Positions 7,352-31,502 of a stretch of 64,000 nucleotides of DNA are shown piece after piece. Below the pieces are notes generated by a model. It was not told the DNA's origin, made no database searches, and was given only the letters and a program-made list of their open reading frames with translations. A program made the translations under genes and the position numbers. The stretch's first letter is position 1, and the number at the start of each line of letters is the position of its first letter. The stretch comes from Myxococcales bacterium (lineage in GTDB: Bacteria; Desulfobacterota; Binatia; HRBIN30). The stretch covers positions 64,001 through 128,000 of the forward strand of contig JBBILD010000003.1 in assembly GCA_037445065.1 (NCBI GenBank), written 5' to 3'.

Positions 7352-8671
7352 GTGCGAGAAGTGCGTTTGGGACTCGCTGGCTTTGGCACGATCGGTACAG
7401 GGGTGGTCAAGTTGCTCGAAGGCTTGGGGCCGGCGCTCGCGAGACGTTTGGGGTTTCGGCTCAAGCTGGCTCAAGTTGCCGACGTGGACCTCAATCGCGA
7501 TCGCGGGGTAGCGGTTCCGCGCGAATTGTTCACCACGGATGCGTTTGCGCTCGTTTCTGACCCGCAGATAGACGTGGTCATTGAGCTGATCGGTGGGTGC
7601 AACGTTGCTCGGCGCCTGGTGCTAGCCGCCCTGCGTGCGGGAAAAAGCGTGGTGACGGCGAACAAGGCCTTGCTTGCGGTCCACGGCCAGGAGATTTTTC
7701 GCTCGGCGGAAGAGAACAAGCTGGACGTCGGCTTCGAGGCCAGCGTTGGGGGTGGGATTCCCATCGTTCGCACTTTGCGCCAGGGGCTGAGCGGCGACCG
7801 CGTGCGCGCCGTGTACGGCATTGTCAACGGCACCTCCAATTACATCCTGACGCAAATGAGCGAACAGGAAGCCGAATTCGAACCCGTGTTACGGCGGGCG
7901 CAGGCGGAGGGCTTAGCGGAGGCAGATCCGAGTTTCGATGTCGACGGCATTGACGCTGCCCACAAGCTGACCCTGCTCATCCAGCTCGCCTTCGGCGTGT
8001 ACGTTCCCTTCGAGCAGATTCCTACCGAGGGTATCCGGCACGTCACACCGTTGGACATTCGTTTTGCACGCGAGCTGGGCTACGTCATAAAGTTGCTTGC
8101 AATCGCCAAACTTCATGGCAGAGAAGTAGAGGCAAGGGTGCATCCCACGATGGTTCCGCGCAAACACGTTCTGGCCGATGTCAAAGGCGCGTACAACGGA
8201 ATTACCGTGGATGGCGAGGCCCTGGGGCAAACCTTTTACTACGGGTTGGGGGCGGGGATGATGCCAACCGCAACTGCTGTGCTCGCCGACGTGATCGAGG
8301 TTGCGCGGAATCGGGTGTACGGCTCGAGTGGTGCTACACCACCCCTTGGTTATCCGATCGGCGAGCAGAAGCGAGCCAGGCTGCGCCCGCTCGAGCGGTG
8401 TGAATCGGAGTTTTACTTGCGCCTGCACGCCGTAGACAGGCCGGGAGTGCTGGGCCAAATCGCGAGCATTCTGGGCCGCCGACAGATCTCGATCGCAGCC
8501 GTGACCCAGCACGGGAACGGCGAAGGCGGGGTGGTGCCGGTGGTGATGCGTACTCATCGTGCACTAGAGCGGAATTTGCGGCTGGCTTTGCGCGAGATCG
8601 CGCGCTTGCGGGTGATCCGGAAGCCGGTCGGCGTGATTCGAATCGAAGAGAGCCTGGGCGGGGCGTCGTGA
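7352..8671 (+). CDS. hom: Homoserine dehydrogenase with C-terminal ACT domain
   Basis: [64 protein letters not shown] motif. Confidence 0.96.
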
Positions 8672-11142
8672 TGGGCGCGCAGGCAAAGGGGGCGTGGGCG
8701 GGTGTGCTCCTGGCCGGAGTGCTGCTCGCAGCGCAGGAGAGCCGAGCGATCCCCGCCTGCACAGCCGCCGACGTGATTGCCCAGGAAACGAACTGCGGGC
8801 CGAGCGGGAACTGCATCATCTCGAGAACGTACGAGATCCCGGCCGATCCTCCGTGTACCTTCGACTTTTCAGGCCGCAACGTCACGTTGGCATCTACGGC
8901 GCGCTTCACCGTTGGACCGGGGGAGATGACCCTGTTGGCCGCCAACTTTACGATGTCGGCGGGAGCGCTCATTGATGGGCAAGGGACCGGGGCTTCGGGC
9001 CGCGGAGCCACAGGCGGGCGGATTCGGGTGAATGCAAGCGGCAACTGCGATCTTGGTGGAGCCAGCGGCAGCCGCTCGCGCATAGATGTTTCCTCGAACG
9101 CGGGCGGTGGGCTGATTGACATCCGTTGTGGGGGGAACGCATCGCTCAATGGCCGGCTCAATGCGGACAACCTACGGTCCACTGCAGATGGCGGTACCAT
9201 TGTGGTGGCAGCCGGGGGAAATCTCACTTCGACGTCCTCCCCACAAACGGAGATCACCGCGCGGGGTGGGTCCGCCGCACCGCGCGGCGGCGGTGCCATT
9301 TCGCTCGAGGCGGGAGGAGACATTTCCCTCGCGACGAACACGATCTTAGATGTAACCGGCTCGAGCGCTGGGAGTGTGGACATTAGTGCGGTGCGCAACA
9401 TCTCTATGGGCGGTGTTAGCGGAAACGGGAACGGTGCCGCCGGCAGTGGGGCCACAGTGACCATTTCTGCCGGTTGGGCGGCCACGATCAGCGGCGTCAT
9501 TGTGCTCAATGGAGGGACGGCCGATCCCACTGCGGGTGGCGAGGGGGGGGCGCTGACCATTGAAAGTTTGTTTGGCGACGTCGTCTTGGCTGGTAACGTC
9601 CGTGCCGAGGGGTCTGGGCCGGACGGGGACGGCGGCGAGATTGACATCTCAGCCAACGGCAGTGTGCGGATCAACCAAGGAGTGACTCTGTCCGCGCGCA
9701 GCAACGGCAGCGAGGGTGTGGGTGGCGGTGTGTCTATCTCTGCGACCCTCGACTTGGTTTCTCAAGCACAATCGGCGACCCTCATTGACGTCGCCGGAGG
9801 AGGGGGTGGTGGCGGCCTGGATATCGAGGCGGGTAGGAACGTCACGTTGCTGGGGAAGGTGGATGTCAGCGGTAACGCCGCCGGTGGGGTTGGAGGAGAC
9901 GTTTCGATTTTGGCCGGGGCAGGTGGCTCAGGATCAATGACCGTTGGGGCCAATGTGGACGTCAGTGGAGGTCCGTGTAACTTGGACTTCGGGTGTGGCG
10001 AGGGCGGAACGACCGACCTGAGCGCCTGCGATCTCACGGTGACCTCCGCCGCCACCGTTACCGCCAACGCTCCCGGTGCGGCCGGTGCTCACCAGTTGGA
10101 GGTGCGAAAGCAACTGCGGGTTGATGGGATCGTCACTGCCGTGAAAACCTTGTCTTCGGGGAGCGATGGATCTGTAACGATTGAACACCACGCTTCCTTT
10201 CCACCCGTGCTCGGCACCAATCGAGTTCGCCCTGTGCCGACGTTGAGTCCGAAGCCATTTTGTTCTCCAGACTTGAGCCAAGAGTGCTTGGTCCCCTGTC
10301 CGGTGTGCGGGAACAATGTCGTCGAGTTCCCGGAGACCTGTGACGGCGGCAACACCGCGAGCTGCGACGGCTGCAGCCTGCTTTGCCAAGTGGAAGAGTG
10401 CCCACCGTCTCAATTTTGCCCGGGCAACGTCAACTGCAGCGCTCAGTTGGGTTGCGCGATTTGTCCCGACGCACCCACGCCGACGCCCACGAACACCAGA
10501 ACGCCGACCAGTACGCCGACGCCTTCACCCACCGTCAGTGCGACGCCCACGGAAACGTTGACTGCGACGCCGACTGACACTCCTCCACCCACCGCCACGC
10601 GTTCGCCAAGCCTCACGCCCTCGCAAACCGATACCCCCTCGCCGACCCTGAGTGTTACACCGACGCAGACGGCATCCGCGACGCGGACACCGACACCCAG
10701 CCCCACTGCCTCCGTCACTCCCACGGTGAGTCCGACCTACACGGCTTCGCCCACTCCCTCTTTGTCGCCGACGGCCTCGGCGACGCTGACTTGGACCCCG
10801 ACACCCAGCGCAACGCCTTCGCCAACGGCTTCTCCGAGTGAGACCCGGACCGCCTCGCCGACCCCGAGCCCAACGGCCACGGTTTCTGTGACGCCGACCG
10901 CCTCAACAACATGGACCGCTGAGCCCATGCCCACCGACACTCCGCGAGGGGAAGTGTGTGCGGGGGACTGCGCCGGTGATGGCGAAGTGACCGTGGATGA
11001 GCTGTTGCGCATGGTCAACATTGCCCTCGGGAGCGCCCCGGTAGAGACTTGCTTGGCCGGGGATACGAACGGGGACGGCGAAATTACGATTGATGAGATT
11101 CTGCGCGGGGTCAATTCCGCCCTGTTTGGATGCGCCTCGTGA
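8668..11142 (+). CDS. Secreted modular protein: Gly-rich beta-helix-like repeats, Myxococcus-type Cys repeat, Pro/Thr linker, dockerin-like C-terminus
   Basis: Signal peptide ending SRA; repeated GGxIxIxA units; [16 protein letters not shown]...CDGCSLLC; long TPS linker; [17 protein letters not shown]...[15 protein letters not shown] twin EF-hand-like motif. Confidence 0.85.
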
Positions 11143-11215
11143 GTTTCGACCGAGAACACTGTAGAAGGGCAGGGCCAGTTCGGTTATGGGGAGCTGGTGC
11201 GAGGGAGCGAGGAGC

Positions 11216-12169
11216 ATGGACCGGAACCTGGCACTGGAAGCGGTTCGCGTGACCGAAGCCGCCGCCCTTGCCGCCGCGCGGCTGATGGGGCGGGGCGACG
11301 TTGCGGGGGTGGATCGCGCCGCCGCGGAGGCGATGCGTAAGGCGATTCGCTCGATCGCCATCCGCGGGCGTGTTGCCCTGGGCGAAGGCGAGCCGGGGGT
11401 GGCCGACGTGTTGTACGTCGGTGAAATGGTGGGAAGTGGCGAGGGGCCCGAGATCGACGTGGCGCTCGATGCCCTGGAAGGTGCCTCGATTTGTGCCACC
11501 GGTGGATACAACGCCTTGTCGCTGATTGCTTTCGCGGAGCGCGACGGGTTCTTGCGTTGCCCAGAGACGTACATGGAAAAAATCGTGGTAGGACCCGAGG
11601 GGCGGGAGGTGATCGACCTCGACCGCTCGCCGACCGAGAACCTGAAAGCTCTGGCGGAGGCGAAGGGCGTGTATGTGGCCGACCTAACGGTGGCCATCCT
11701 CGATCGGCCGCGCCATGCCCAGCTCATCGCCGAGGTGCGCAAGGCAGGGGCCCGCATCAAGCTCCTGCCAGACGGAGACGTCGCTGCGGGCATCGCGACC
11801 GTACGGCCGGAAACGGGCATTGATATGCTGCTCGGCATCGGAGGTGCCGCCCAGGGAATCCTCACCGCTGCTGCCATCCGCTGCGCCGGCGGCGGAATGC
11901 AGGCCCGCTTGCGGCCGCGCAATGACGACGAGGCGCGCCGCTGCCGAGCTGCCGGCATCGAAGACCTGAATCGCAAGCTGACTGCCGAAGACATGGCAAG
12001 CGGTAGCGTCATGTTCGCTGCCACTGGGGTCACCAATGGCGATCTGCTGCGCGGAGTGCGCTTTTTCCGCGGTGGGGCGACGACCAACTCTCTGGTCATG
12101 CGCTCGCGCACGCATACCGTTCGCTTCATCGAAGCTACTCATCGCTTCGATTTCAAACCGGAGTACTGA
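11216..12169 (+). CDS. glpX: Class II fructose-1,6-bisphosphatase
   Basis: MDRNLALEAVRVTEAAA, GEGE, YMEKI, LDRPRH, DGDVA, FAATGVTNGDLLRGV. Confidence 0.93.
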   Translation: MDRNLALEAVRVTEAAALAAARLMGRGDVAGVDRAAAEAMRKAIRSIAIRGRVALGEGEPGVADVLYVGEMVGSGEGPEIDVALDALEGASICATGGYNALSLIAFAERDGFLRCPETYMEKIVVGPEGREVIDLDRSPTENLKALAEAKGVYVADLTVAILDRPRHAQLIAEVRKAGARIKLLPDGDVAAGIATVRPETGIDMLLGIGGAAQGILTAAAIRCAGGGMQARLRPRNDDEARRCRAAGIEDLNRKLTAEDMASGSVMFAATGVTNGDLLRGVRFFRGGATTNSLVMRSRTHTVRFIEATHRFDFKPEY

Positions 12170-12176
12170 GGGCGCT

Positions 12177-12950
12177 GTGGCAAACGAGGCAGTTCGTCTC
12201 GACCTCGAGGATCGCGTGGCGTGGCTCACGATCGCACGCCCAGCGGCGCTCAATGCCCTCAATACCACCGTGCTCACAGGGCTGGCGGAGGCGATCGAAC
12301 GGGTGGCGAGCAGCGAGGCTCGCTGCCTGGTGATTCGCGGACAGGGAGAGAAGGCCTTTGTCGCGGGTGCCGACATTGCCGAGCTGGCCGAACTCGACCC
12401 TCCGGCAGCGCAGCGCTTCGCGCAGTTGGGCCAGCAAGTGTTTCAAAGGATCGAGGCCTTATCGTGCCCGGTGCTCGCTGCTGTCAATGGCTACGCGCTC
12501 GGCGGCGGACTCGAACTCGCGCTGGCGTGCGACCTCATTGTGGCCGCGGACCATGCTCAATTCGCACAGCCTGAGATCACGCTCGGGATTGTGCCCGGGT
12601 TCGGTGGCACACAGCGGCTGATTCGCCGGGTAGGGCCGGGGGCGGCCCGCTGGCTCATCTTTACCGGCAAGCGCATTTCGGCTGCAGAGGCGCTACGCTT
12701 GCGCCTCGTAGATCAGGTGGTGCCAGCCCCAGAACTGGCGGGCACAGTGCGGGCATTGGCTAGCGAGCTGGCGGCGAAGCCGCGGCTTGCTCTGCAGCAG
12801 GCCAAGCGGTTGTTGCGACTGGCGGCGGAAACTCCGCTCGCTCACGGCCTCCAGGCCGAGGCTGCTGCCTTCGCCGTGTGTTTTGCACACCCAGACCGGG
12901 TGGAAGGCATGCGCGCGTTCCTGGAGAAGCGGGCGCCTCGGTTCGTGTGA
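12177..12950 (+). CDS. Enoyl-CoA hydratase/crotonase family protein
   Basis: KAFVAGADI, AVNGYALGGGLELALACD, QPEITLGIVPGFGGTQRL. Confidence 0.93.
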   Translation: MANEAVRLDLEDRVAWLTIARPAALNALNTTVLTGLAEAIERVASSEARCLVIRGQGEKAFVAGADIAELAELDPPAAQRFAQLGQQVFQRIEALSCPVLAAVNGYALGGGLELALACDLIVAADHAQFAQPEITLGIVPGFGGTQRLIRRVGPGAARWLIFTGKRISAAEALRLRLVDQVVPAPELAGTVRALASELAAKPRLALQQAKRLLRLAAETPLAHGLQAEAAAFAVCFAHPDRVEGMRAFLEKRAPRFV

Positions 12951-12966
12951 CAGCGGAGAAGCCGCA

Positions 12967-13191
12967 ATGGAGTGGCGCGAATGTTTCCGGACGCCCAGCG
13001 AAGCGGAGGCCCATCTCGTGCGGGGCTTCCTGGAATCGCGTGGCGTTCCGTGCGTACTGATGAGCAGCCGGTTCAGTGCCCAACCGCTCACCTTCGGGGC
13101 ACTGGGCGAGATCAAAGTCCTGGTGCCGGAAGAGTGGCACGCGAGTGCCCTCGCGATGATCCGGCGCCGCCTGGCAGGAGAAAACGGATGA
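12967..13191 (+). CDS. Small DUF2007-like (putative signal-transducing) protein
   Basis: [18 protein letters not shown]...[19 protein letters not shown] pattern; stop overlaps the mutase start. Confidence 0.75.
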
Positions 13192-14852: not shown

Positions 14853-16559
14853 GCCCGCATTGCGCGCAAAGCAGAGCGCAGGGATTCGGAGCCCCTACGC
14901 CGGGCACCGATTCATCGCTTGCGGTCCACCCCATCCCAAAAGGGCACGCTCTGTGCCGGCCTGAATCCTGCCGGATTCAGGGATCGCCTCGTCTTGCATC
15001 GGCCAACTATCAGCATTGGCGGTGGCTTCGGTAGCCGCTAGGGTGCCTGAACGACCGAACCGCGCTGCAAACAGCGCTCGCCCCGCGTGGTTGACCGCTC
15101 GCAGGTAGAGCGGCCGTTCCGTGGGAACATCCCCAGCCAACCGTGCGCGTTTTGTGTTTCGTCGCACCGACCTGACGCTTGTCCCCCGAGGCGGGTGAGC
15201 CAAGCAACGCTGCCGGATCGCCCTACGAGGCCAGCGTTTACGGCGGTGTAGAGTTTGGGAAGCCACACGGAAGAGGGGAAGAAGTGGGTGCACCGTCCGC
15301 AGTGCGCCGTGCGGCGGCCAGCGGGGAGCTGGGACCACCAGGCGTGGTTTTGGGTCTCGTCTCGGTTACCATCGAGGGTTGGGCGTAGGCCGCTGAGGAC
15401 GGCGTTGCGGGAGAGTTCTCGCTGCACTGCAGCCACGTGCCGTCCAGGGAAGTCGTGGCTTCCCGGGATGGGAGGAGCATGGTGATCCCAGTTGCGCTGG
15501 TGCGGGAGCCAAAGCGTGGAGCGGGTTCCCGGGCCCAGGTTTCTGGGTTGGCCCTTCGCCAACGGGAGGTACGCGTATGCGGAGATCGAGCTGGGCCACG
15601 TGGTGCGGGTGGATTTGCGGCGCCCGGACTAGGAATGTCGGGGCGAGGCGTGTGTCGCGACACCCTCCGGGGCAAGGTTGGCTACAGCGGCCGAGGACGA
15701 CAGTTGGGTTCTGAGCACCGTGGACGATGGCGGTAGCGGTATGGGCTGGCTTATCGAGCCCGCAGCTCCGATGCAGTTCGGAGGCTGCGGATTTCCAGGA
15801 GTGGTGAGCCGGGAAGTCGCGGGGGTCTCGCCTCGTAGTTGCTAGCCCAAGGCGCGACCCCCTTCCTCGCCGCACGAATTCTTGGTCGCCAGCGTGGAGG
15901 GGCAGCGCTCGGGCGGGGAGAGCCGGTGGCCTACGCTGCTGGGTTCCTTCGGGCCCATCCCGCGCTTGGTGCCGTCCGCTGTCGGTAGCCGCGGCGTGGA
16001 ACTCCAAGAGTTCGTCTACCTTGGTCCTGCGGAGCTATCTCCGACGGTTCCGGCGGCCAACGGCTGCAACGCGGAGGAAAGCGCGCCTGGCGGCACGTGG
16101 GAGTGGATCGTACTTTTCGTCTTGGTGGCGGCGCGGTGGGGTTGCCCGTGGCACCGGGCTGCGTCTGCCCTGCGCGCCGTCTCACTTGCCGCCAACTCGG
16201 CCTCGGCGCGGGTGATCGCCAATGACGCCACGCTGCGCATCGACTTCGGTCCCCTGCAACCCGCACCCCAGTCCAACCCCCGGGCGCAGGCTCGTGAGAA
16301 AGCGTTCTCGAACGCGCCATCGCTTCGGGTGTTGACAATTGCGTTGGGAGGTAGAGACCTCTCTTGCTGCAACGGGGTGCCGGCGGCCGGGTGCGCGGCA
16401 GCACGCACGAGGCTTGCGATGACGAGAGCTCGGCAAGATGGAAACGGGCCGCGGCAGGGGCGGTGGGGAGAGAGCGGGGGCGCTGCAGGGCCAAGAAGGG
16501 GGCGCTTTGCCCTGCAGTGCTGTGCGCAAGCGCCGTGCTGGTTGGGACTCCGGCTCGGG

Positions 16560-17850
16560 CGGGGATGCGGTCGGTCTGGGTTTGCGGGATTCCGCGCAAG
16601 TGGTGGTTCTCGATGGCGACACGAATTCGGTCGTCAGCACAATTTCCCCCCTCACTGCCACGCGCCCTGGCCGCAACCCCGGATGGCCGCCACGTGATGG
16701 TTTTTCTGGGCGACGCTTCCCCCGGGTTGATCCGAACCGAGGCCGACGTACTGGCGGGCACCGTGCTCCTGTCTGGTGGGTCGTGCACCTCCGGCATCAG
16801 TCCGGACTCCGAGTGGGTTTACTTGGCGACGGTAGCCGGTCTCTGCGCGGGGGGCCGGTGTGGTGTGGTGGAGGCCGTGGGCGTAAATAGTCTGCGCGTT
16901 ACCGCCACCGTACCCATTCGGCAGCCGAGCAGCCCTTGCGACCTCGCCGTAACCCCCGATGGTAGCCGCGTCCTGGTCATGCATAAGGACGGGGTTTCCG
17001 TTTCTCCCTCGACACAGCGACCTTAGAGTTCGGTACCCCTTTGGTCCTGCCGTGCTGCCCGATCTGTTTTATCCGCGCCAACGCCGATGGCGCCCGCTTC
17101 CAGATCGGGTACGGGGACGTGTGGGTCTCCGGTTTCCACGGTCGCGATGTAAACACGCTGGTGTGCCGAGATGTGATCCGTTCGAAGGCGGAGCTGGCTA
17201 CTTGTCCATCTCCCCGGACGGAACGCGGGTGTACCTTCCGGTTCTGCTTCCGCGGACATGCCAAGTACGGTTGCTGGCCTTCGACATAGCGCGAGGGTCC
17301 ATCGCTGGCGTTCTGGGTCTGCCCATGGAAACGCCGGGTGTGAGCGCCGCTAGCATTCTCGCCTTGAGCCCCGAGGGAGCCCGCGCGTATGTGCAGTCCG
17401 TGGGGCCGTCTAACCTGCTGGTCATCAACACCGTTTCCAACCGTATCGCGGCCAGCTTGCTTCTCTTGGTGGGCCGCTTCGTCTTGAGCAGCGACTCGAG
17501 GCGTGCCCACGCGGCCGGCCCCGATTCCCTTCTTCGCCATCGATACGGCGTCGAACGAGGTCGCGACTGCACTCCCGCTCTCGGTTGGGGGCATGGCGCT
17601 GGTTGACTCCACGGCTCCGCCAAGTGCGAGTCCAACGCAGACGTCGACGCGGACGGTTACCCCCTACGATCGCCGTGACGGGCACCTCGACCCCGCCGCC
17701 GCCCGCAACGCACACACTGGCTGTCGGGCGGGGATGTTCGGGCGGCTACTCGGTGCTGCCCGATCCCCCCAACGCGCTCGCGCCGTTTCTCTACTACGGC
17801 TTTGTAGTGATCGTAGCCGGGCGTTGCCGGCCCTGGGTAAGGAGGCAGGC
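16560..17850 (+). pseudogene. Frameshifted YVTN-type beta-propeller secreted protein with Pro/Thr linker and degenerate C-terminal membrane anchor
   Basis: Fragments in alternating frames: VVVLDGDTNSVVSTI, LAATPDGRHV, ISPDSEWVYL, LAVTPDGSRVLV, ISPDGTRVYL, LSPEGARAYV, VINTVSNRIAA, AIDTASNEVAT, then PSASPTQT and GRGCSGG...FLYYGFVVIVAGRCRPWVRR; boundaries approximate. Confidence 0.8.
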
Positions 17851-17879
17851 GCAGGTCGAGGCTGCGCCGGCGGGAGCAG

Positions 17880-19935
17880 TTGGTTGCGCCTTTTGGGGCT
17901 TCGGACCTTTCTTGTCCTGCGCGCCGACGGGCCGGCGCTGGCCCAGGAACCGGTTACGGTTCTTGCCGATTCCGTTTTCCTGCTGAGGACCACTCTCACG
18001 GGAGCCCACGCCGATTCGGAAGGGATCTCGACGTTGCGTAGCAGCCAGGTGCCGTGCACCGCACACCCCCCCTCACGGTGGAGCAGTCCGTGGTGCTCGC
18101 GCTCGAACCGTAGGCTCCCTGCGCCCCTGCCATTACGCAGTACCGAATCGATGAGGCTCTCATTGTCCCGATGCCTTCCTAGAGCACGAGACGGTTTCGG
18201 GGCTCGGTGATTGGATACCCGGTTTCAATCGGCTAGCTGGCAGCAGAACCGGAGACAGTGAGTGGCGCGGCAAGCACTGGCGGAGCCGCCTACCTCATTC
18301 GGCCGCACGAAGGATCGATGGGACCGGGCGGCCACGTCATCGATAGCGCGCCGCTGCCGGCAGAGAACACGGGTCCGCCCCTGTCGCTGCCGGAGAATGC
18401 GTTCAATGCGCCACCAATCTTCCCGCCTGCGGTGTGAGTGCAATCGGTAACTGCCCGAGCGGCACGGCACGCCTGGGCAGGCTCCGGGCGGAACTCGCCC
18501 TCGCTGTCACTGGTGGCTTCACGGCGCAGTTTCCGCCCTCGACAGACCGCCGCGAAGTGATTGAGGTCGTCTGCTGTGCTGTTGACGCTGTTTCGGAAAT
18601 CTCTACGCGCGAGGTTGATGCGGAGTTCCTGGTCAAGTCCGTTCAGATCTGGACGATGAACGCCACCGTGCTGCCACCCAGCGGCCGGCAATACACGGCG
18701 CAGGACTTTCAGGACCACTGGCGGCCGAGTGTGGGAAAAGCCAGCGCGATGCCGTCTTCGGCTTTTGGCCCGGTGGGTCGAGCGGGGCGCACGTGAACGT
18801 TACGGGTCTGGGGGTTCCCGGTGCCTTGCCGGGAGACGCGGACACGGCGGTGGAGTTGGCGGGAGCAGATGACTTCGTGGCTATCCGCAGGACGTTCGCT
18901 TTGTTGCAATTGTCGGGTTCGTTCTCGATCGAGCTGTGGGTGAAGCTGACCGCCACCTCCCAGTCCGACAAGTACCTGCTCAACAAGGGCAACCACTACG
19001 CCGTGCTGTACGGGTAGGTGCTGAATGCTGGAGTTGTCTGCCGGCGAGGGCACGTTCACCGGTAGCGACCCGCGCCCGTACCGCGCCATTCCGGCGGAGG
19101 ACACATCTCGGCATCACATCGTCTACGCGTACGATTAATGAGAACAGGGACTGTTTTAGCGGTACAAGGATTGCCCGCCGGTCGAGCCCACTCCTGCTGC
19201 GCTGCGCTTTTCCCTGGGAAGCACGAGCGAGGATTTGATCCTGGGTGGGGCTGGTCCGGGCTAGCTCAACAACGTCCATGCAGTACTGGATGAGGTGGCC
19301 GTGTGTCAGCGCTGAGTGCGAGCGAGGTGCGGGTGCGCTACCGGGCCAAGCGTTGCGGCGGCTGTGGCGAGTCGCAGCCTTGCTCGAGGGTCGGTCGGTT
19401 GCCGGTGGGTGATGCGTAAGTGGAGTCCATCCGCAACAAAGCGAACTTCGGTACCGACACCGACCTGCACGTTGGCACTTCGGCGACCGCGAAGGGACAG
19501 CCTGAGCCGAACAAGCACCGCGCACTGCCTGCTTTTGGCCTTGCCCAGACCTTGCCGAGTGGGGCCTCCGTCGTGGAGGCGTGGCTGCACCTTTCTCTCT
19601 CCGCGCTGTTTGTCGGCTCGGACTTGCCGGGATTCGCGGTGTATCGGAACGAGCAGGACTTTGCGGAGGCGCTAGTCACGTGGAGCAACCAGCCTCCCGC
19701 CAGCTCGGTGCCGGCACCGGTGGCGCGGCTAATCCAGCCCGCCGCGGCAGGATGAACGGCGCTGGAAGTCACCAGCCTCGTTGCCGACTGCTGGCAGCTC
19801 CGCTCTGGCCAGTGCTCCTGGCAGGTGCGCTGGCTGAACGAGGTGGACGACGTCAGCGCGGGGATGTGGCTGGCGAGCCGCGAAGCCCCAGGCGCGGGCC
19901 AGCGCCCGTACCTGGAAGTCTTCTATCGGCTGCCG
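17880..19935 (+). pseudogene. Degraded secreted protein with LamG/concanavalin-like and DNRLRE-like domains
   Basis: Signal-like ...GPALAQ; GVPGALPGDADTAVEL..DDFV..SFSIELWVK..HHIVYAYD..LDEVAV (LamG-like); ANFGTDTDLHVG..RAL..F..LPSGASVVEAWLHL..VTWSNQP..SREA..RPYLEV (DNRLRE-like); several stops and frameshifts; boundaries approximate. Confidence 0.7.
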
Positions 19936-20082
19936 AGCGCATTGGTCTGGCAAGTCACGGGGGTGCCTCGGAGGCTCGGCGAAGTCGGTGCGAGGCCTGG
20001 AATGCGCCAGGAGGTGAAGCCGTGAAGGGGCGAGAGGGTCTTCCTGATGCGGGCTGTTACATTGCTGCGCTGTGCACGGGTG

Positions 20083-20690
20083 GGGCTGGTTCCCGCATCG
20101 CGCATGCTGGGAGTGGCGACCGATGGGGCGTGCGGGAGGTGATCGCCGGAGACGAAGCCGAGCTGGTCCCCTTGATGCGCGCGTGTGTGGAAGGCGAGCA
20201 GGCGTTCCACGGGCGCTGCAATGGCGCTGTGTGGGACCTGGCTTGGGCTGAGTCGGTGGTCACCGCACGCAAGCGCTAGCTCGTGCTGAGCCTCGATGGC
20301 CACATCGTGGGCTTTTTCGATTTGCCGGGGCGGGTACCTGAACCGTTCGGAGAGCCGATTGTGGATCGTTACGCCTGCTCGTTCTGGTGCGCGGCGGTCG
20401 GCGTGCGTCTGGACCAACTGGGAAAAGAGTTGGCCGTTCGCGCGTTTTGGTACCGCGCGTATCACGCCTTCCTGGCCGCGCCTGCGCGCGGGTACGAGTA
20501 TCTGGGGGCGAGCGTGCCGTGGGACCAGCACCCGTATCTGCCCAAGCCGTTTGCCGAGTACGCGAGCGTCGTTGCGTGCAAACCGATGGTAGACGGCGAG
20601 GGCAACGGGCGGTTTTTGCTCAAATGCAAGCTTACCCAGGCTCTCGAAACTCTCGTGAGCGAGGGAGCCAGTTCGCCCCTGCCTTCTTGA
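20083..20690 (+). pseudogene. Hypothetical GNAT-like protein interrupted by an in-frame TAG
   Basis: ORF ending 20279 (VREVIAGDEAELVPLMRAC) and ORF 20283-20690 (VLSLDGHIVGF) are in the same frame, separated by one stop; start approximate. Confidence 0.5.
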
Positions 20691-21200
20691 GTCCGGCCAG
20701 GCGGCCGGGCCGGCTGCGGCGGGGCCAAGCACCGCGGGCGGTGCGGCTGCGCGATGGAGGCGTGAGGCGCAGCCCATTCGTTGCTGGTGTTGCGCACCCG
20801 GGCGCCCGGCAGAACTTGCTGCGTACTGCCGCCCGAAATGGGCCTGTTCTGCAGCGCACGACTTGGGGGTTGGCTCTCGGCGCGCGCCCTACAGATCATG
20901 GAAGCGCGCGGTCACATCCAGGATTGCCGAGAAGAAGTTTCGGTCCTTGCGGCAGGCTTCGCTGCGGAGCCTCGGCGACGAGCGGCCTCAGTGACAAGAG
21001 CCTTAGGCCGAGCGCAAGCCCGGCTGAGGACGGTCGCTCTGCCTCGCGTTTCGGTCGCGGGCGAGAAAACGGTCTTTCGAGAAGGGCGGGACGGGTCTCA
21101 CCAAGGGTAAGGCCTCGCCGGTCTCCGCTCACAGCCGGGCGGTGGGGGTGCGATCCGGCAACTTGCGCGGTGGGGAGGCCAGCAGTAGGGAAGGTAGTTC

Positions 21201-21608
21201 ATGAACCAACGGCGGCTGCGGATTTTGGTGGCCAAACCGGGGCTCGACGGCCATGATCGGGGCGCAAAAATCATCGCGCGGGCACTGCGCGATGCAGGCT
21301 TCGAGGTCATTTACACCGGCTTGCACCAGACTCCGGAAATGATCGTCGAGACGGCGATCCAGGAAGACGTGGATGCGATTGGGCTGAGCATTTTGTCCGG
21401 CGCGCATATGACGTTGTTCCCGGACGTACTGCGCTTGCTGGCGGAAAAGGGCGTCGAGGACATCCCAGTGTTCGGCGGCGGGATCATCCCTCCAGAAGAT
21501 GCACGCGAACTCAAGGCCTTGGGAGTGCGCGAGATCTTCACACCCGGTGCCTCGATTCAAGAAATCGTGGACTGGGTGAGAACGCATCTACGGCCGCGCA
21601 GCGAGTGA
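21201..21608 (+). CDS. icmB: Cobalamin-binding small subunit of acyl-CoA mutase
   Basis: [13 protein letters not shown] (DxHxxG), [23 protein letters not shown]. Confidence 0.88.
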
Positions 21609-21620
21609 CAAGAGCAGGCG

Positions 21621-22829: not shown

Positions 22830-22860
22830 GCGGACAACCGAACGGGAAGGAGGATTCTGC

Positions 22861-24656: not shown

Positions 24657-24894
24657 TCTGCGAGGTCTCCGTGCTCGGCATCCCGGGGACGTGGCTCGTG
24701 AACGGAAAGCCGCGCCCTGGCTTGGATCGGAACCTGGTTCTGGGAACTTGCGGGCGCGGCGATGGTTCCGGCGCGCGCTCGCATGTGCGGCCGTCGGGGC
24801 AAGCGCCAGCGGGCATGGGTTCCGGAGCGTAGTTTGCACGTTGACTTGCCCCGCGCACTGGAGCATGCGGTGAGGTGCCCGGAGAGGGGGAACG

Positions 24895-26592
24895 ATGGTG
24901 GACAGGTGGGCTGACTGGCGGCTCGGTGCAGCCTGCCTCATCGTGTTTGCTCCCCGTCTCGCGCTCGCTTTTTCCAGTGGGATTACCGGTCTCACGACGA
25001 GTCCCGCAGGGTGTAACCAATGCCACTCGGGTGGGCAGGTGCCGGCCGTCACGTTGAGCGGGCCGACCACGGTGACACCCGGGTCCACGAACGAGTACGT
25101 GCTCGAGATCGCCCCAGTCGGTTCGCAGATTTGGGGTGGTCTCAACGCCGGTGCGAGCGCCGGCACCCTCTCGGTGGGTGGCGCCCATTCTTCCGGCACC
25201 AAGCTTTTGAATGGCGAGATCACGCACACGCAGCGCAAGGGCGGCGACGGGAATCCGATCCGCTTTTCGTTTTTGTGGACAGCGCCGACCACGGGCGGGG
25301 CGTTCGCTCTGCGGGCCTGGGGGAATGCAGTCAATGGCAATGGAGCAAATTCCGGCGACCGCGCCGCGTTCGCAAGCCTGAACGTGAATACAGGACCGAC
25401 TGCCCCGCCGACCGCAACCGTGACCCTCACGCCGACACCAAGCCCCACGAGTACCCGGACGCCGACCGCAACCCAGACCCTCCGCCCAACCTCCACCCCA
25501 ACGCCAACCGGAACCCTCACCGCAACGCCTTCTGCCAGTCCCACCCCGAGTGCAAGCCGGACGCCGAGCGCAACGCCGTCGCCGAGCGATACGCCGTCTC
25601 CGCTTCCGACAGTCACTGCTAGCCCAACGCCTTCGTCAACCAGCACCGGGACGGCAACGCCGAGCGTGTCGTTGACTCCGACGCGGACTGGGACGGCAAC
25701 GGCCAGTGCGTCTGTGACCTTTTCGCCGACCCGGTCTCCCTCGCCGAGTTCGACCGCGACGTTGTTGGCGAGCGCGACACCGACGCCGCGGGCTTCGGCC
25801 ACCGCGACGGACTCGGCGACCCCCAGCCGCTCTCCCACCCCGACCCCGAGCGTGTCGCCGAGTGCGAGTCCTTCGGCGACTCGCACGGCGACGGCCACGT
25901 TGCTCCCTACCGCAACCGCGTCGGCAAGCCGCACTGCCACGGCGCCAGCAAGCGCAACGCCTTCTGCCAGTCCCACCCCGAGTGCAAGCCGGACGCCGAG
26001 CGCAACGCCGTCGCCGAGCGATACGCCGTCTCCGCTTCCTACACTCATTGCTAGCCCAACGCCTTCGTTCACCAGCACCGGGACGGCAACGCCGAGCGTG
26101 TCGTTGACTCCGACGCGGACTGGGACGGCAACGGCCAGTGCGTCTGTGACCTTTTCACCGACCCGGTCTCCCTCGCCGACCTCGACCTTGTCGGCGAGCG
26201 CGACACCCACGCCGTCGGCGTCGGCCACCGCGACGGACTCGGCGACCCCGAGCCGCTCTCCCACCCCGACCCCGAGCGTGTCGCCGAGTGCGAGTCCTTC
26301 GGCGACTCGCACGGCGACGGCCACGTTGCTCCCTACCGCAACCCCTTCGCCAAGCCGCACTGCTACGGCCACCGCCACCGCCACCCGGAGTCCGCGGAGT
26401 TCGGCTTGTCCCGGCGATTGTGGCGGCGACGGAGAAGTTACCGTGGACGAGTTAGTGGTGCTGGTCAACATTGCGCTCGGAAGCATGCCGGTGGAAGCGT
26501 GTTTGGCCGGCGACACGAATGAAGACGGTGACATCACGATCGAGGAAATTCTGCGTGGGGTGAACGCTTCTCTGTTCGGATGCGGCACCTGA
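24895..26592 (+). CDS. Secreted protein: CxxCH Reeler-like domain, long Ser/Thr/Pro linker, dockerin-like C-terminus
   Basis: Signal peptide ending [53 protein letters not shown]...GDTNEDGDITIEEIL. Confidence 0.88.
   Translation: MVDRWADWRLGAACLIVFAPRLALAFSSGITGLTTSPAGCNQCHSGGQVPAVTLSGPTTVTPGSTNEYVLEIAPVGSQIWGGLNAGASAGTLSVGGAHSSGTKLLNGEITHTQRKGGDGNPIRFSFLWTAPTTGGAFALRAWGNAVNGNGANSGDRAAFASLNVNTGPTAPPTATVTLTPTPSPTSTRTPTATQTLRPTSTPTPTGTLTATPSASPTPSASRTPSATPSPSDTPSPLPTVTASPTPSSTSTGTATPSVSLTPTRTGTATASASVTFSPTRSPSPSSTATLLASATPTPRASATATDSATPSRSPTPTPSVSPSASPSATRTATATLLPTATASASRTATAPASATPSASPTPSASRTPSATPSPSDTPSPLPTLIASPTPSFTSTGTATPSVSLTPTRTGTATASASVTFSPTRSPSPTSTLSASATPTPSASATATDSATPSRSPTPTPSVSPSASPSATRTATATLLPTATPSPSRTATATATATRSPRSSACPGDCGGDGEVTVDELVVLVNIALGSMPVEACLAGDTNEDGDITIEEILRGVNASLFGCGT
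25521..26369 (+). repeat. In-frame tandem duplication (offset 432 bp) inside the linker-coding region
   Basis: cgcaacgccttctgccagtcccaccccgagtgcaagccggacgccgagc begins at 25521 and again at 25953; near-identity continues for about 420 bp. Confidence 0.92.
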
Positions 26593-27185
26593 GGTGAATG
26601 GTGAGGACGTCCCCGGGGGCATGTGAGCCACTCTGGGATGAAGCGGAAGCGGCAGCCGTGGCCAAGCCCCAGCGCACTGGGCAAGCCGGCGGTTCATCGG
26701 TGGAGTTAGAGTCGCGCAGCGACTTTCGTGACTTGAGGTAGTGCAGGACGTGCAGCGAGTGGTGGTACACCGCCGTGCAAGGTGGAGACCTCGAAGCGCT
26801 TCAGGGCAGCGTTGGCGCCGGTACGGGTTGCGGTTTGCGGGCAGGAAAAACGGCTGTCGCTCTCGCGTGTTGCTTCGTTGGGCGCCCGATGGAGGGCCGT
26901 ACCGTCCGTGCACGCAGTCGTTAACTGACTTGCGAAGATCCGCGTGGTGAGCCCGTATTCTCGCGCGTCATGCGCAGCGGCGCACGAGCTACGAGCCGGC
27001 TACGCAGTCTATTTGCGTTTTACTCTGCCTACCTTGGGCTGGCAGCCGCTCCGACGACCCAGCGCTCGCGTTCAGACAGGGCATACCCACGTCGTTGCGT
27101 GCCAGCGCAAGCTCGCAGATGCGGACAGGTTTGTTGACTCATCCAGTCCACGAGTGCAGACTCGGTCCGCGGGAGGGTTCTGGCC

Positions 27186-28598
27186 ATGGCGCGCAAACAG
27201 CTTTCATGGTTAACGGGGGCGACTCTGGTGCTGCTCGTCGGTTCCCGTACGGTCTTTGCCTTTTCGACGGGGATCACCGGTCTGACCACGAGTTCCACGG
27301 GTTGTAACCAGTGCCATTCGGGCGGACAGGTTCCAGCCGTGACCTTGAGCGGGCCGACCAATGTCGCGCCCGGATCCACGAACGAGTACACGTTAGAGAT
27401 CACGCCCGTGGGCACGCAGATTTGGGGCGGTCTCGACGCCGGTGCGAGCGGTGGCACCCTATCTGTCGGTGGCTCGAATTCTGCTTCGACGCAGCTCCTG
27501 AGCGGCGAGATCACGCATACGCAGCGCAAAGGGGGAGACGGAAACCCGATTCGTTTCTCCTTTCTGTGGACGGCACCAGCGGTGGGAGGAGTGTTCACGC
27601 TGCGCGCGTGGGGCAACGCGGTCAATGGGAACGGAGCGAATTCCGGCGACCGCGCCGCGTTCGCAAGTTTGAGTGTGAACGCCGGTCCGACCGCCACGCC
27701 GACCGTTACTGCAACCGCGACCGCTTCGCCCACACCGACTCCACCGGCGCACGACGCGCTTGTGCAGCCCTTGGCCCCGCGTACGATCAAGATTCCCAAA
27801 ACGGCTCCGGTGGGAGTGACCAAGAAGTTTGCGCTCAAGGTGCGGAACGCCGATCCGAGTGGCGTCCCAGCGCAAACGATTGCCTTGTCATTACTGTCCA
27901 CGACTTGCCCGTCAGGGGTGACCTTCACGGCTCCCGATTTCGACGGCAAGACCGCCGGCGAGCAAAGTCAGATTCTGCTCAACCCCGGACAAGGGAAGGC
28001 CGCAGTGGTCTCGGTGAGTGTATCGCACGCCGACATCAGCTCGCTTTTGCCCACGCTGCCCTTCCGCTGCTCCGCCACGTACCGGGCTGACGTGGTGCTG
28101 AGTGGGAACACGGACCCATCCCCGAACAACAACGAATTTCCATTGGAACTCAACTTCATTGACCTCGCCGATGCAGCCCAGCCAGCACCCGACGAGGCAT
28201 GGCTCAAGCGCGCTCCGCACGCTCGCGCCAACATCCCGTCTGGCGTGCTCACGCAAACCGTCCGTCGCACGATTCAAGTCGCCAACGCCGACACCGTGCC
28301 TCATACTCTCGGTCTAGCCGTGGACGCATCTGCGTGCCCTTGGGTGTCGGTGCTCAGCATTGACTTCGATCCCAAGACTCCGAGCATCGAGCCCAACCTG
28401 CTGGTGGCCCCCGGAAAAACCGGGAAGGCGCTGGTGCAGTTGGTCGCAGATGGGTCCATGATCTCCACTTCGAACAGCAGGGCGCCGCAGCGCTGTGTGC
28501 TCACTGCGACCGTACAAGGCCCGGCCAGTCCGGATCCGGAGCCCAGTAACGACAGTAGCAAGTTCGTACTGGATGTGATTGACAAGAACGACTTGTAG
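27186..28598 (+). CDS. Secreted protein: CxxCH Reeler-like domain plus two tandem ~140-aa beta-sandwich domains
   Basis: N-terminal domain nearly identical to that of the 24895 gene; two C-terminal repeats, each with a C-P, an RC and a DPxPxN motif. Confidence 0.88.
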   Translation: MARKQLSWLTGATLVLLVGSRTVFAFSTGITGLTTSSTGCNQCHSGGQVPAVTLSGPTNVAPGSTNEYTLEITPVGTQIWGGLDAGASGGTLSVGGSNSASTQLLSGEITHTQRKGGDGNPIRFSFLWTAPAVGGVFTLRAWGNAVNGNGANSGDRAAFASLSVNAGPTATPTVTATATASPTPTPPAHDALVQPLAPRTIKIPKTAPVGVTKKFALKVRNADPSGVPAQTIALSLLSTTCPSGVTFTAPDFDGKTAGEQSQILLNPGQGKAAVVSVSVSHADISSLLPTLPFRCSATYRADVVLSGNTDPSPNNNEFPLELNFIDLADAAQPAPDEAWLKRAPHARANIPSGVLTQTVRRTIQVANADTVPHTLGLAVDASACPWVSVLSIDFDPKTPSIEPNLLVAPGKTGKALVQLVADGSMISTSNSRAPQRCVLTATVQGPASPDPEPSNDSSKFVLDVIDKNDL

Positions 28599-28613
28599 AG
28601 TGCATTATGTGCC

Positions 28614-31502
28614 ATGACGTATTTTCTCGTCATGGCACTTGCACTCGTAGCGCTGGCAGAGCGGGTTCGTGCCGTTTGCTCGGCTTCGGAAATGGTTGGG
28701 ACCGAACCAAGCTGTACGGCGCCTGTTTGCCGAATCCGGGGCACCTACACAATCGAAGACCAGTGCTTGCTGGACTTCTCGTTCGCGGATGTAGTGTTGG
28801 AAGCCGGTGCGCGCTGGAATGTGGGGGCGCGGTCGGCCACTGTGCTCGCTCGCAGCTTCACGGTGCGTGCGGGTGCATTCGTGGATGCACGGGGCCTCGC
28901 GACGCAGGGCCCGGGGACGCGCGGCGGCACGCTGGAACTACGGGTTGGGGGGCCCGTGTTGCTCGAGGCGGGCAGCACACGGGGGCGGATCGACGCCTCT
29001 GCCACCCAGCATGCTGGGCAGATCCGCATTAGCGCGGCGGGGCCGCTCCGGATCGCGGGCCGCCTACTGGCCGCAAACCTCACCAACGGCGCCTCGGGCG
29101 GGCGGATCGAACTGGTAAGTTCGGACGCGGTGATCGTCGACAGCTCGGCCGAAATGGACTTTTCGGGCGGCCTCTCCGCCCCCGGGGGTGGAGGATCGCT
29201 CTCCATCCGGGCGGGAGCCGATGTCACCTTGGGTGCACCGCTGGCGGGCAACGGCTCGAACGGCGGGACTGTGCAGATCGAAGCCGGAGGGAAGGTTGCA
29301 GTGGGCACGGTCCTGCTGAGTGGGACGGGCGATGCGGGCAGTGGTGGAACGTTGGCGATCCGTGCCTTTCGCGACGTCGCACTGCTCGGCCCGGTGCGCC
29401 TGCAGGGAAGCACGCGCCTGCTGACAGACGGTGGGGATGGCGGAGCGCTGTCTGTCGAAAGCCGCTACGGCTCGGTGCAGGTCGGCGCCACTCTCTCGGC
29501 CGAGGGAGCCGAACCCAACGGCTTTGGCGGATCCATTCAGATCCTCGCTGCTGGTTCACTTACGTTTGCCAAAGGCACGACGGTTTCGATGCGTGCCAAC
29601 GGCTCCCTCGGTGCGGGCGGAACACTGCAGGCCTGGGCAGGTCAGCAGATCGTGCAACTGAGTGCTGTTGACGCCAGCGGGGGGGCTGAAGGCGGACAAG
29701 TGGGGTTGGAGGCACTGGGAGATCTCGTGCTTGCCGGCACGATGGACGTGCGCGGACGGGGCGAAGGAGCTGTGGGCGGCGAAGCAGGACTGCTGGCAGG
29801 GGGCTCGACCGAGGGAGCTTGGGCGCAGGGGGACCTGCGCATCTCGGGCACAGTTGATGTGTCTGGCGGGACGTGCGGGACTTCCGGTTGTGGTGCTGGA
29901 GGTTCGTTTTCGGCAACAGGATGTTCCGTATCGTTGGAAGGAACGGGCCGCGTGCTAGCGCGCGGTGGTGGGGAAGGGGGAGTTCTGACCATGACCGCGC
30001 GCTCCTCGCTCGGCGTGCAAGGGACTCTACTCGCCACCCCTAGCACGAGCGGGGGTCGGCCGGGTGTCATCCACTTCCAGGTACTGAACGGAATCGCCCC
30101 GGTGGTGAGTGGAAATGCGCTGCCGCTCCCGGTGATCACCGCGAGCCCCCCATGCACGCCTGAAACGATCGCCGGCTGTGTCATGCCGTGCCCACGCTGC
30201 GGCGACGGCCGCACGGACTACCCCGAAGAGTGCGACGATGGGAACCAGGCGTCGTGCGACGGCTGCTCCGCGCACTGCCAGCAAGAGGATTGCGCGCCTG
30301 CGGCATGGTGTGTTCCCTGCGAGGCATCCCTGGGCTGCCCTCCAGAGCCCGAGCCGCGGTGTGCGCCGCCGCCCAGCGCCACGCCGACGCCGACCGCGCG
30401 GCCGAGCGCGACGTCCACGCCGACTGCGCGGTCTAGCGCGACGGCCACCCGCGCAGTGCCAGCCGCGACGTTGACCGCAACGGAGACACCGAGAGTCGTG
30501 CCGACTGCAAGCCCGACGCCGACACCGCTCGTCAGCGGATCGGTTGCGACGCTGCCGACCCGGAGTCCCACACGAACGTGGTCGCCCACTGCCGGCCTAC
30601 AGCCTTCTCCGACGCTGCCGCCGACTGCTACAGCGAGCCCTACCTCGACCCCACGGTCACGGCACGACCTAATGTTGTTCCCGCCGCGCCCGGTGGTCTT
30701 GCGCTTGGCCCCCGGCGCTGCGCTGGTGCACAAACCGTTACCAGTGCGGGTGCGCAACATTGCCAGCGACAGCGACGTTGCGGTACCTGTGCGTGTGGTT
30801 GCGACCAGCAACTGTCCCACCGGCTCGGTCCCCGAGGCGGTAGCGTTCGACCCCGGGGGCGAAGGGAACCCGAGTGTCGCTCTCGTTCCCCCTGGGAAGT
30901 CTCGTCAAGGGTTGCTCGAAATCGAAGCCCGTGCCGAGGCGTTTACCTCGACGGGGCCGCTTTCCCCCCAGCGCTGTCGGATCGAGCTGGTGGCTGAGGT
31001 CGCGTTGCCGGGTAACCAAGACCCGACACCGGACAACAACCGGGCGTTTGTGGAAGTGGACGTGGTAGACGCGGGCGACGGGTGGCTCAGCAGGGTCCAC
31101 CAAACGGCCATCGTCGCAGCACACCCGAAGGTGATTCGGCTCCAGCCTGGTCACGATTTCGCGGAGGCTCGCTTACGACTCGGGCTGCGGAACGGGGACC
31201 GCAACGATCGGGACGGACACGCGGTGCGCCTGCTGGGCAGCGACGGGACTTGCCCGGCGGGCACGATCGGCCCGCCGTTGCTCCGACCGCGGCCGGATTT
31301 GCTGCCTGGAGCGGTGTGGGTGCGCAGTGCGGGCACGCGCGGCCTCTCGGTGCCGGTTCGTTATCGGAGAGCTGACATCCCGCTGGCCGCACCTGGTCGG
31401 CGTTACCGCTGCTTTCTGTCGTTCGAAGCAATTGGCCCTGCCGGGGACCGCGATCCGAGCAACAACACCACCGTGCTTACCCTCGACATGGTGGTCCGCT
31501 GA
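28614..31502 (+). CDS. Secreted protein: Gly-rich beta-helix-like domain, Myxococcus-type Cys repeat, Pro/Thr linker, two tandem beta-sandwich domains
   Basis: N-terminal part aligns by eye with the 8668 gene; CGDGRTDYPEECDDGNQASCDGCSAHC; C-terminal HDL..VRN..CP..PQRC..DPTPDNN and a second such repeat, as in the 27186 gene. Confidence 0.87.
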   Translation: MTYFLVMALALVALAERVRAVCSASEMVGTEPSCTAPVCRIRGTYTIEDQCLLDFSFADVVLEAGARWNVGARSATVLARSFTVRAGAFVDARGLATQGPGTRGGTLELRVGGPVLLEAGSTRGRIDASATQHAGQIRISAAGPLRIAGRLLAANLTNGASGGRIELVSSDAVIVDSSAEMDFSGGLSAPGGGGSLSIRAGADVTLGAPLAGNGSNGGTVQIEAGGKVAVGTVLLSGTGDAGSGGTLAIRAFRDVALLGPVRLQGSTRLLTDGGDGGALSVESRYGSVQVGATLSAEGAEPNGFGGSIQILAAGSLTFAKGTTVSMRANGSLGAGGTLQAWAGQQIVQLSAVDASGGAEGGQVGLEALGDLVLAGTMDVRGRGEGAVGGEAGLLAGGSTEGAWAQGDLRISGTVDVSGGTCGTSGCGAGGSFSATGCSVSLEGTGRVLARGGGEGGVLTMTARSSLGVQGTLLATPSTSGGRPGVIHFQVLNGIAPVVSGNALPLPVITASPPCTPETIAGCVMPCPRCGDGRTDYPEECDDGNQASCDGCSAHCQQEDCAPAAWCVPCEASLGCPPEPEPRCAPPPSATPTPTARPSATSTPTARSSATATRAVPAATLTATETPRVVPTASPTPTPLVSGSVATLPTRSPTRTWSPTAGLQPSPTLPPTATASPTSTPRSRHDLMLFPPRPVVLRLAPGAALVHKPLPVRVRNIASDSDVAVPVRVVATSNCPTGSVPEAVAFDPGGEGNPSVALVPPGKSRQGLLEIEARAEAFTSTGPLSPQRCRIELVAEVALPGNQDPTPDNNRAFVEVDVVDAGDGWLSRVHQTAIVAAHPKVIRLQPGHDFAEARLRLGLRNGDRNDRDGHAVRLLGSDGTCPAGTIGPPLLRPRPDLLPGAVWVRSAGTRGLSVPVRYRRADIPLAAPGRRYRCFLSFEAIGPAGDRDPSNNTTVLTLDMVVR

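Follow-up and report, generated by a model that had tools for sequence, protein, structure and literature searches.

Two traits of secreted bacterial proteins are already known, namely the swapping of anchors by cargo domains and the existence of cohesin-dockerin pairs outside cellulosomes. The first of these has given its name to the choice-of-anchor families of NCBIfam, such as choice_anch_V (NF041895) and the MXAN_6652 family (NF041894), the term denoting cargo that is seen with several anchors. Both traits bear on the stretch of DNA analysed here, a window of 64,000 nucleotides (nt) from a Myxococcales bacterium assigned to Binatia (contig JBBILD010000003.1, positions 64,001 to 128,000), in which four forward-strand genes join one of two N-terminal cargo modules, A or B, through a linker to one of two C-terminal tails, X or Y, so that A-X, B-X, B-Y and A-Y all occur. 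These four genes are a sample of a lineage-wide pool of cargoes and tails. The reading that we favour, with a probability of roughly two in three, is that such proteins are built as cargo, linker and swappable tail, in which X docks on cohesins and Y acts as a second attachment module.

On the side of the cargo, module B is itself a member of the choice-of-anchor families, which elsewhere are seen with several anchors. Two things differ here: B alternates between a dockerin and folded domains that are not catalogued (Y and a third tail, Z), and both tail versions stand side by side in one genome. The accessible part of PMC11878542 merely uses the term choice-of-anchor. As for tail X, its predicted model shares the dockerin fold with the type I cohesin-dockerin system of clostridial cellulosomes (2ccl, 2vn5, 6kg9), and, as in cellulosomes, there are genes for surface-anchored scaffolds with several cohesins. 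X departs from cellulosomal dockerins in its four conserved Cys, in the EF-hand-like Glu that it has at position 12 of the loop and in a score below the Pfam cutoff, and, unlike in cellulosomes, the anchors are MYXO-CTERM-like or lipid and the four cargoes gave no glycoside hydrolase match in a Pfam scan. Outside cellulosomes, a cohesin-dockerin ‘planctosome’ has been proposed (PMC6461901) and non-cellulolytic ‘scaffoldin-containing’ microbes have been described (PMC11557425), with Binatia unmentioned in the available portions of the latter source.

Tail Y, like CARDB (PF07705, 3idu) and DUF11 (PF01345), is predicted to form a seven-stranded immunoglobulin (Ig)-like sandwich, and its tandem, YY, resembles, at a level common among Ig-like folds, the tandem fibronectin type III pair of Vibrio cholerae RbmA (4be5). 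Y is set apart from all three by the lack of a profile match over cutoff, a conserved CP...RC Cys pair, a DxND-type motif at its terminus and a mostly paired arrangement, and it occurs only in Binatia among the genomes searched. With the type A C-terminal domain of the type IX secretion system (T9SS; TIGR04183) and similar domains, Y has in common an Ig-like fold, a place at the extreme C-terminus and unrelated secreted cargo, but it is about twice the domain size and usually tandem, has no sequence match to them and shows rare N-terminal copies. Literature pairing Binatota with dockerin, cellulosome or secretome was not found in a search outside which most subscription journals lay.

Cargo modules and their exchangeable tails

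The complete two-by-two set that had been claimed for this locus was recovered as four open reading frames (ORFs), A-X (8668..11142, 824 amino acids, aa), B-X (24895..26592, 565 aa), B-Y (27186..28598, 470 aa) and A-Y (28614..31502, 962 aa), all of which begin with a signal-peptide-like stretch as read by eye. The module pairs are homologous: by BLASTP, the two A modules are 36.6% identical over 584 aa (E 9e-55), the two B modules 75.8% over 165 aa, the two X tails 76.6% over 64 aa and the two Y tails 25.4% over 303 aa (E 1e-14). For A and Y, on whose homology the original prediction hinged, alignment scores lie far above those of shuffled sequences, with 926 versus a maximum of 180 in 300 shuffles for A, and 189 versus a maximum of 65 in 1000 shuffles for Y.

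Module A occupies 8752..10470 in A-X, where it has 19% Gly and Cys pairs, and 28674..30353 in A-Y. The Myxococcus-type Cys repeat expected in it is present, both A proteins passing TIGR02232 (10303-10398, at the end of the first copy, and 30195-30290). No family for the module was found in Pfam or NCBIfam, and the best Atlas value, 0.81, is uninformative; from its Gly-rich repeats, it may form a beta-helix and is probably an adhesin-like or carbohydrate-binding solenoid. Module B (24970..25398 in B-X, with a CxxCH motif, and 27261..27689 in B-Y) had been likened to Reeler, a family that gave no Pfam match at E<=0.1; it is a choice-of-anchor V domain, its copies scoring 124.5 and 124.7 bits on NF041895 against a cutoff of 42, and the motif C-x(2-4)-CH is found in all 58 B domains collected. 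The predicted Pro/Thr linkers are borne out as stretches with 60-75% Pro/Thr/Ser, which measure 161 aa in A-X (10471..10953), ~335 aa in B-X (25399..26403), 101 aa in A-Y (30354..30656) and only 20 aa in B-Y.

The host genome (G000; 3.79 Mb, 62.9% GC, 97.7% complete) has two copies of A, and four of B, three with X and one with Y. The original prediction had also raised the possibility that X and Y are simply common genome-wide, and this is so in part: by iterated profile, X lies on about 60 ORFs, some of them fragments (50 by BLASTP), and is C-terminal in 28 of the 60, whereas Y lies on 6 ORFs with 11 domains. In a sample of 41 genomes of the order, A was found in 32, and A and B have swapped tails repeatedly, which supports X and Y as alternative anchoring or sorting modules. 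Among 59 A proteins, the tail is X in 35, Y in 11, Z in 4 and other in 9, and among 58 B proteins it is X in 38, Z in 9, Y in 6 and other in 5; these are the classed members of 68 A and 74 B matches, the rest being unfetched, fragments, off contig or merged as identical ends, and the ‘other’ A tails include three broken or truncated frames, each with X in a neighbouring frame. The trees need 13 tail changes for A (quick tree) and 11 for B, and at least three changes of the Y tail fall on well-supported branches in each. In other lineages, B homologues end in MYXO-CTERM (P0175, 21.2 bits, cutoff 20), IPTL-CTERM (L051, 20.7 bits, cutoff 20.5) or T9SS-like tails (P0178, 22.7 bits, just below the cutoff of 23), and therefore Y occupies the slot of known anchors.

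Further tails were seen in addition to X and Y. The third swappable tail, Z (~155 aa), occurs on A and B homologues (L099:922-2079, L078:1342-4023) and on 4 ORFs of the host genome (listed at G000 C2:131374-133329, C10:107878-111938 and C6:175313-176323), and three Z proteins scanned had no NCBIfam match. A Cys-rich tail that lies outside all our own profiles ends the B homologues L103:631-2172, L106:214-2772, L118:673-2079, P0162, P0165, P0167 and P0168.

Tail X and cohesin scaffolds

Tail X (10954..11139 in A-X and 26404..26589 in B-X) consists of two Ca-loop/helix repeats with four conserved Cys (alignment A6), the helices spanning residues 14-24 and 46-58 in a model with a predicted local distance difference test (pLDDT) score of 95.5. 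When this model was compared with known structures (VIA), the 13 best rows were all dockerins, at Z 6.6-4.1, followed by a row at Z 3.2; the best row was 2ccl_B, with a root-mean-square deviation (rmsd) of 3.1 and 60 residues aligned. Foldseek likewise placed dockerins at ranks 1-10, none at E 0.001, with a template-modelling (TM) score of 0.66 to 2ccl_B versus 0.28-0.42 to EF-hand proteins. As modelled, X carries a dockerin fold and not an EF-hand pair, in line with the dockerin-like character first proposed for it. One X paralogue, on contig C12, passes the Pfam profile Dockerin_1 (PF00404) with 24.7 bits.

The genome that carries these dockerin variants also encodes cohesins. The Pfam cohesin profile (PF00963) has five matches in it, four over cutoff, of which three of the five lie in one lipoprotein-like scaffold on contig C11, and a cohesin profile of our own, with matches to solved cohesins at E 6e-7, detects 17 domains on 13 ORFs. 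All 41 genomes of the order sample have both X and cohesin-like domains, and the two counts, those of large genomes being at-least values, rise together (Spearman rho 0.69; 0.59 per Mb). The co-occurrence of X and Y, put forward as a check on their partnership, failed to appear, the two counts being unrelated (rho 0.09). Moreover, one or more X genes lie directly upstream of a cohesin gene in the host genome (C11, C21) and in 11 relatives (G005, G007, G008, G009, G011, G014, G020, G022, G024, G035 and loci of the G038/G039 type), a count made on 20 loci chosen for cohesin or X matches.

The cohesin scaffolds next to X genes end in a Cys-hydrophobic-Arg tail, which reaches 15-18.5 bits on MYXO-CTERM (cutoff 20) in four of five protein scans. 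The host genome has four places at which MYXO-CTERM exceeds its cutoff; one is the two-cohesin protein of C21 and another the start of C22, a contig that shares its first 127 nt with the end of C11, where the C11 scaffold is cut. At that C11 end (L182:767-4864), two X genes form an operon with a tandem-cohesin scaffold gene, truncated by the contig end, while C22:1-420 continues from the shared 127 nt into a Pro/Thr linker and a MYXO-CTERM tail. A second class of cohesin protein is the three-cohesin scaffold on C11 (L059:7705-10498; C11:103701-106482), which is lipoprotein-like with a Pro/Thr stalk and is followed by a single-cohesin gene. The host genome also has a GspD that passes its cutoff and two CPBP-family proteases, the family to which myxosortases belong according to the available part of 10.1101/2023.06.07.544157.

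A predicted complex of X (A6) with an operon-linked cohesin (A8) scored 0.11 against a mark of 0.32, which is evidence neither way. It is probable that X-tailed proteins plug into cohesin scaffolds encoded elsewhere in the genome. The cellulosome-like, non-cellulolytic complex suggested by the original prediction is to that extent plausible for X, but its scaffold would not be made by these four genes.

Tail Y and its free C-terminus

In B-Y, tail Y (27744..28595) comprises two Ig-like beta-sandwiches (27744-28175 and 28182-28595) with one conserved Cys pair per domain and an intact DxND-type motif at the terminus, whereas the two domains of A-Y (30657-31082 and 31092-31499, within 30657..31499) end without that motif. 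The YY model (pLDDT 93.6, predicted TM score 0.88) shows two Ig-like sandwiches of about seven main strands each. No Pfam or NCBIfam family exceeded its cutoff on Y, and no sequence relative was found in the PDB, the single YY-profile match standing at E 0.73. The best structural rows (VIA) were RbmA, Vpr and Fsx1 at Z 7.8-7.9, values tied with unrelated Ig folds and in the range that the tool calls common; CARDB (3idu) lay at Z 6.0 (rmsd 2.5, 101 aligned), also on a par with many Ig folds. Among named Atlas clusters, DUF11/CARDB come nearest, at 0.88-0.89, which lies below 0.9 and is a lead only; among 29 Y pairs, DUF11 matched 3, at best with E 0.84 and below cutoff, and CARDB none. Cohesin profiles matched none of the 29 pairs, none of the five PF00963 places is Y, and the 50 VIA rows and Foldseek matches listed for YY contain no cohesin structure, which does not by itself exclude that fold.

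Several other proposals for Y were dropped. DUF6719 appeared in 18 of 29 pairs at E<=10, but the match was a motif of 11-20 residues, below cutoff in the five inspected. A basic patch for anionic polymers was suggested by 8.8% Lys+Arg versus 4.3% in cargo, but only 18% of 110 proteins are net positive. Nor is Y always tandem, single-Y proteins being common in other orders.

Y turned up in 30 of the 41 genomes sampled from the order, in 43 of 151 from the class and in none of 200 others sampled from the phylum, and it is restricted to Binatia among the genomes searched; the nearest titled relative of B-Y, at 61% identity, is from a Candidatus Binatia genome. Besides B-Y and A-Y, the host genome has Y on two matrixin proteases, a LamG protein and a beta-helix/PKD protein. 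Since its matrixins include an X-tailed protein as well, three cargo families in this genome have both tails.

A wider set of Y proteins was taken as the best 150 of 401 clusters of a representative library. In these best 150, two Y domains are present in 149, Y ends within 10 aa of the C-terminus in 147, X accompanies Y in 1, and our cohesin and Z profiles have no match; an LRR pattern is likewise absent from all 150. Their cargo is diverse, with 39 clusters among 119 proteins and, in a Pfam scan of 43 cargoes, S8 and trypsin proteases, propellers, LamG, beta-helices, PKD and Cys repeats; an N-terminal hydrophobic stretch was detected in 86 of the 150 by a crude filter, many records being fragments. 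The DxND-type motif is terminal in 133 of the 147 C-terminal copies (109 strictly DxND) and in none of the three N-terminal copies, and it also ends 14 of 14 single-Y proteins of one family picked from the class matches, 6 of 6 B-Y proteins, and 3 of 3 A-Y proteins outside the group that keeps the gene order of this locus. Position and motif together suggest a function that uses the free C-terminus.

Some variants of the usual arrangement were observed. Several Binatia families share a conserved secreted protein of ~350 aa in which a single Y follows Asp/Gly-rich repeats (L210-L221, L226, L227); L222:5060-6064, P0075 and P0098 consist of a signal peptide and YY alone; and L223:2243-9613 (G006 C95) has three adjacent YY-tailed genes separated by 4-nt gaps. 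No conserved neighbour gene stood out in 20 loci of single-Y or stand-alone YY genes.

For the role of this tail, we lean, at a little short of even odds, towards a second, non-covalent attachment module. Y would be a disulfide-stabilised and probably Ca2+-binding Ig pair, and it would bind a surface or matrix component other than X through its free DxND-type end. A more far-reaching possibility, which we hold to be unlikely, is that Y is an undescribed folded targeting signal whose free DxND(F/L/Y) end is read by a receptor or secretion component, giving a second surface route beside cohesin-dockerin, with A and B duplicated more than once for display by both routes; the stricter form, in which Y is an export signal analogous to the T9SS C-terminal domain and a Binatia receptor or secretion component reads the Ig pair together with that free end, seems marginally less likely again. 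Much of the above would fit a signal, including the extreme C-terminal position, the absence of the motif from N-terminal copies and its presence in every member of the picked single-Y family, the varied cargo, the T9SS-like tails in the same slot of B homologues, and the confinement of Y to part of one class. However, three proteins carry YY at the N-terminus and others consist of a signal peptide with YY only, the A-Y group that keeps the gene order retains both domains without the motif, and some genomes have 1-2 Y matches, which is few for a dedicated machinery.

Origin and proposed working of the four-gene set

A-X lies among housekeeping genes, its start codon inside the stop of the homoserine dehydrogenase gene, hom (8668-8671), with glpX next, and this placement at the hom stop is kept in five relatives. 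G008, G018, G020 and G024 share the gene order hom, A-X, glpX, enoyl-CoA hydratase, mutase, FAD enzyme, LLM oxidoreductase, binding protein, A-Y, which G009 retains for the most part and G011 in part. In the loci of relatives, B-Y precedes A-Y in two of seven tested and B-X in none of the seven; in the window, A-Y begins 15 nt downstream of B-Y. The paralogy of A-X and A-Y is old and their positions are conserved, and B-Y predates this genome.

B-X is younger and, among the loci tested, confined to the host lineage. Its B module is sister to that of the neighbouring B-Y (support 100/98; 77% nucleotide identity), its X groups as sister with that of A-X (support 100/95 in a set of 65 X rows; of 1711 X pairs these two are the closest), and of the 8 other homologues at least 65% identical to this B, 7 carry Y and none X. 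On these relationships B-X is a local chimera, because each half has its nearest kin in the window and the close B homologues carry Y: it arose by duplication of the front of B-Y and takeover of a dockerin related to that of A-X, and the simplest reading of the direction of transfer is from A-X to B-X. The B-X linker contains an internal 423-nt repeat (25521-25943 and 25953-26369, 94% identity). A misassembly is unlikely, because contigs of a related strain (run X3, ~96% identical) bridge both outer junctions, one joining the upstream gene to the B of B-X and another running from its X through B-Y into A-Y; no single contig crossing the repeated linker was found in that run. Runs X2 and X3 come from one study together with the possible source run, and X5 and X6 could be a single data set. 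A promoter scan gave two sigma-70-like matches.

Two other genomes, G007 and G009, have the full two-by-two set as well, and G018 makes a third if its A-Y, split over two contigs, is counted, but the set is completed there by B-X genes of an older clade located elsewhere in the genome. The set was present in 3 of 37 scored genomes versus 0.91 expected from a label shuffle (P 0.033), and A-X occurs together with A-Y in 10 genomes versus 5.5 expected (P 0.001), both excesses being inflated by related genomes. The tidy arrangement is mostly history, a conserved A-X ... (B-Y) A-Y layout to which one recent chimeric gene was added, and a slice of lineage-wide tail shuffling instead of a closed four-part system.

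Between the large subunit of methylmalonyl-CoA mutase and the gene at 21201-21608, by eye the B12-binding subunit of that mutase and a close neighbour of the large subunit in five relatives, lies a 6.3-kb stretch (14853-21128) that looks like decayed beta-propeller genes; it has no second genomic copy, and six of its ORFs tested had no Pfam match.

Tail swaps might also be largely neutral products of recombination in repetitive Pro/Thr linkers, which would leave B-X redundant with the three existing B-dockerin and B-Y genes. The narrow distribution of B-X, a linker repeat number that differs between strains, the decayed appearance of the nearby 6.3-kb insertion and the small excess of the two-by-two set over shuffles all fit this explanation, but we consider it improbable, in view of the retention of both A-X and A-Y across the family in conserved positions, the presence of A-X in 10 of the 11 genomes with a scored A-Y, the recurrence of X/Y sister pairs of A in G015 and G029, and the intact frame of B-X at 23% nucleotide distance from B-Y.

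Slightly less probable is a self-association of Y pairs, head to tail, in which the terminal DxND of one protein would complete a Ca2+-binding site in the first domain of its neighbour, so that chains or a lattice form and the motif-less A-Y acts as a cap. The same motif ends both Y domains, each domain has conserved acidic motifs at its start and in two of its loops, which may resemble the Ca2+ linkers of cadherins, and stand-alone YY proteins and tandem Y genes exist. Furthermore, RbmA, described in the accessible part of PMC5605196 as a dimeric biofilm scaffold, is the fold match extending over most of the two domains (Z 7.9, rmsd 6.0, 209 aligned). That match is nevertheless tied with unrelated Ig folds in the common range, and covariation on 175 YY rows is weak, giving no usable inter-domain geometry and no clear pair between the end of Y2 and the start of Y1 among the top 40.

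That X plugs into Y as its cognate socket, so that the four proteins assemble with one another, as the original prediction offered, can be set aside as very improbable, for although Y domains are beta-sandwiches of ~140 aa, similar in size to cohesins, three of the four genes are adjacent, and X and Y nearly exclude each other within one protein, the X count is unrelated to the Y count, 11 genomes without a Y match have 10-147 X matches each (median 69), all 41 genomes have cohesins, the cohesin profile finds five other places in the genome and none in Y, X genes cluster with cohesin genes, and the best fold matches of Y are Ig-like sandwiches.

Several points weigh against the attachment of X to cohesins and of Y to a second site. 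With regard to X, the tail of A-X scores 15.7 bits on PF00404, below the cutoff of 22.9, that of B-X has no match, and the best PDB sequence matches of X are EF-hand proteins; the correlation of X with cohesins shares genome size and kinship as causes, with at-least values for large genomes. With regard to Y, Ca2+ binding is read from Asp/Asn motifs only, the terminal motif is lost in 8 of 8 syntenic A-Y proteins including that of the window, which any motif-dependent attachment must explain, and a ligand, receptor or conserved neighbour gene was not found. Y is also dispensable, because it was not found in 11 of the 41 genomes, and the best-scoring 150 of 401 Y proteins favour two-domain, well-conserved members.

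Taken together, attachment by two kinds of tail would work as follows. Binatia would secrete many proteins made of a cargo, a Pro/Thr linker and an interchangeable tail, the linkers serving as joints for domain shuffling. Export would proceed by Sec and then probably by type II secretion, after which X-tailed cargo would bind, in a Ca2+-dependent manner, to cohesins on surface scaffolds held by a MYXO-CTERM-like tail or by lipid. A cargo present in both tail forms would then be held at two different places.

What is new in this lineage is Y, a defined, lineage-restricted tail with a sharp and testable feature, its terminal motif. The locus and its relatives also supply a natural control set, in which the same head occurs with either tail in one genome and one swap has been traced to two parent genes. 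If Y were indeed a targeting signal, an export or attachment machinery would be yet to be found in a widespread uncultured group.

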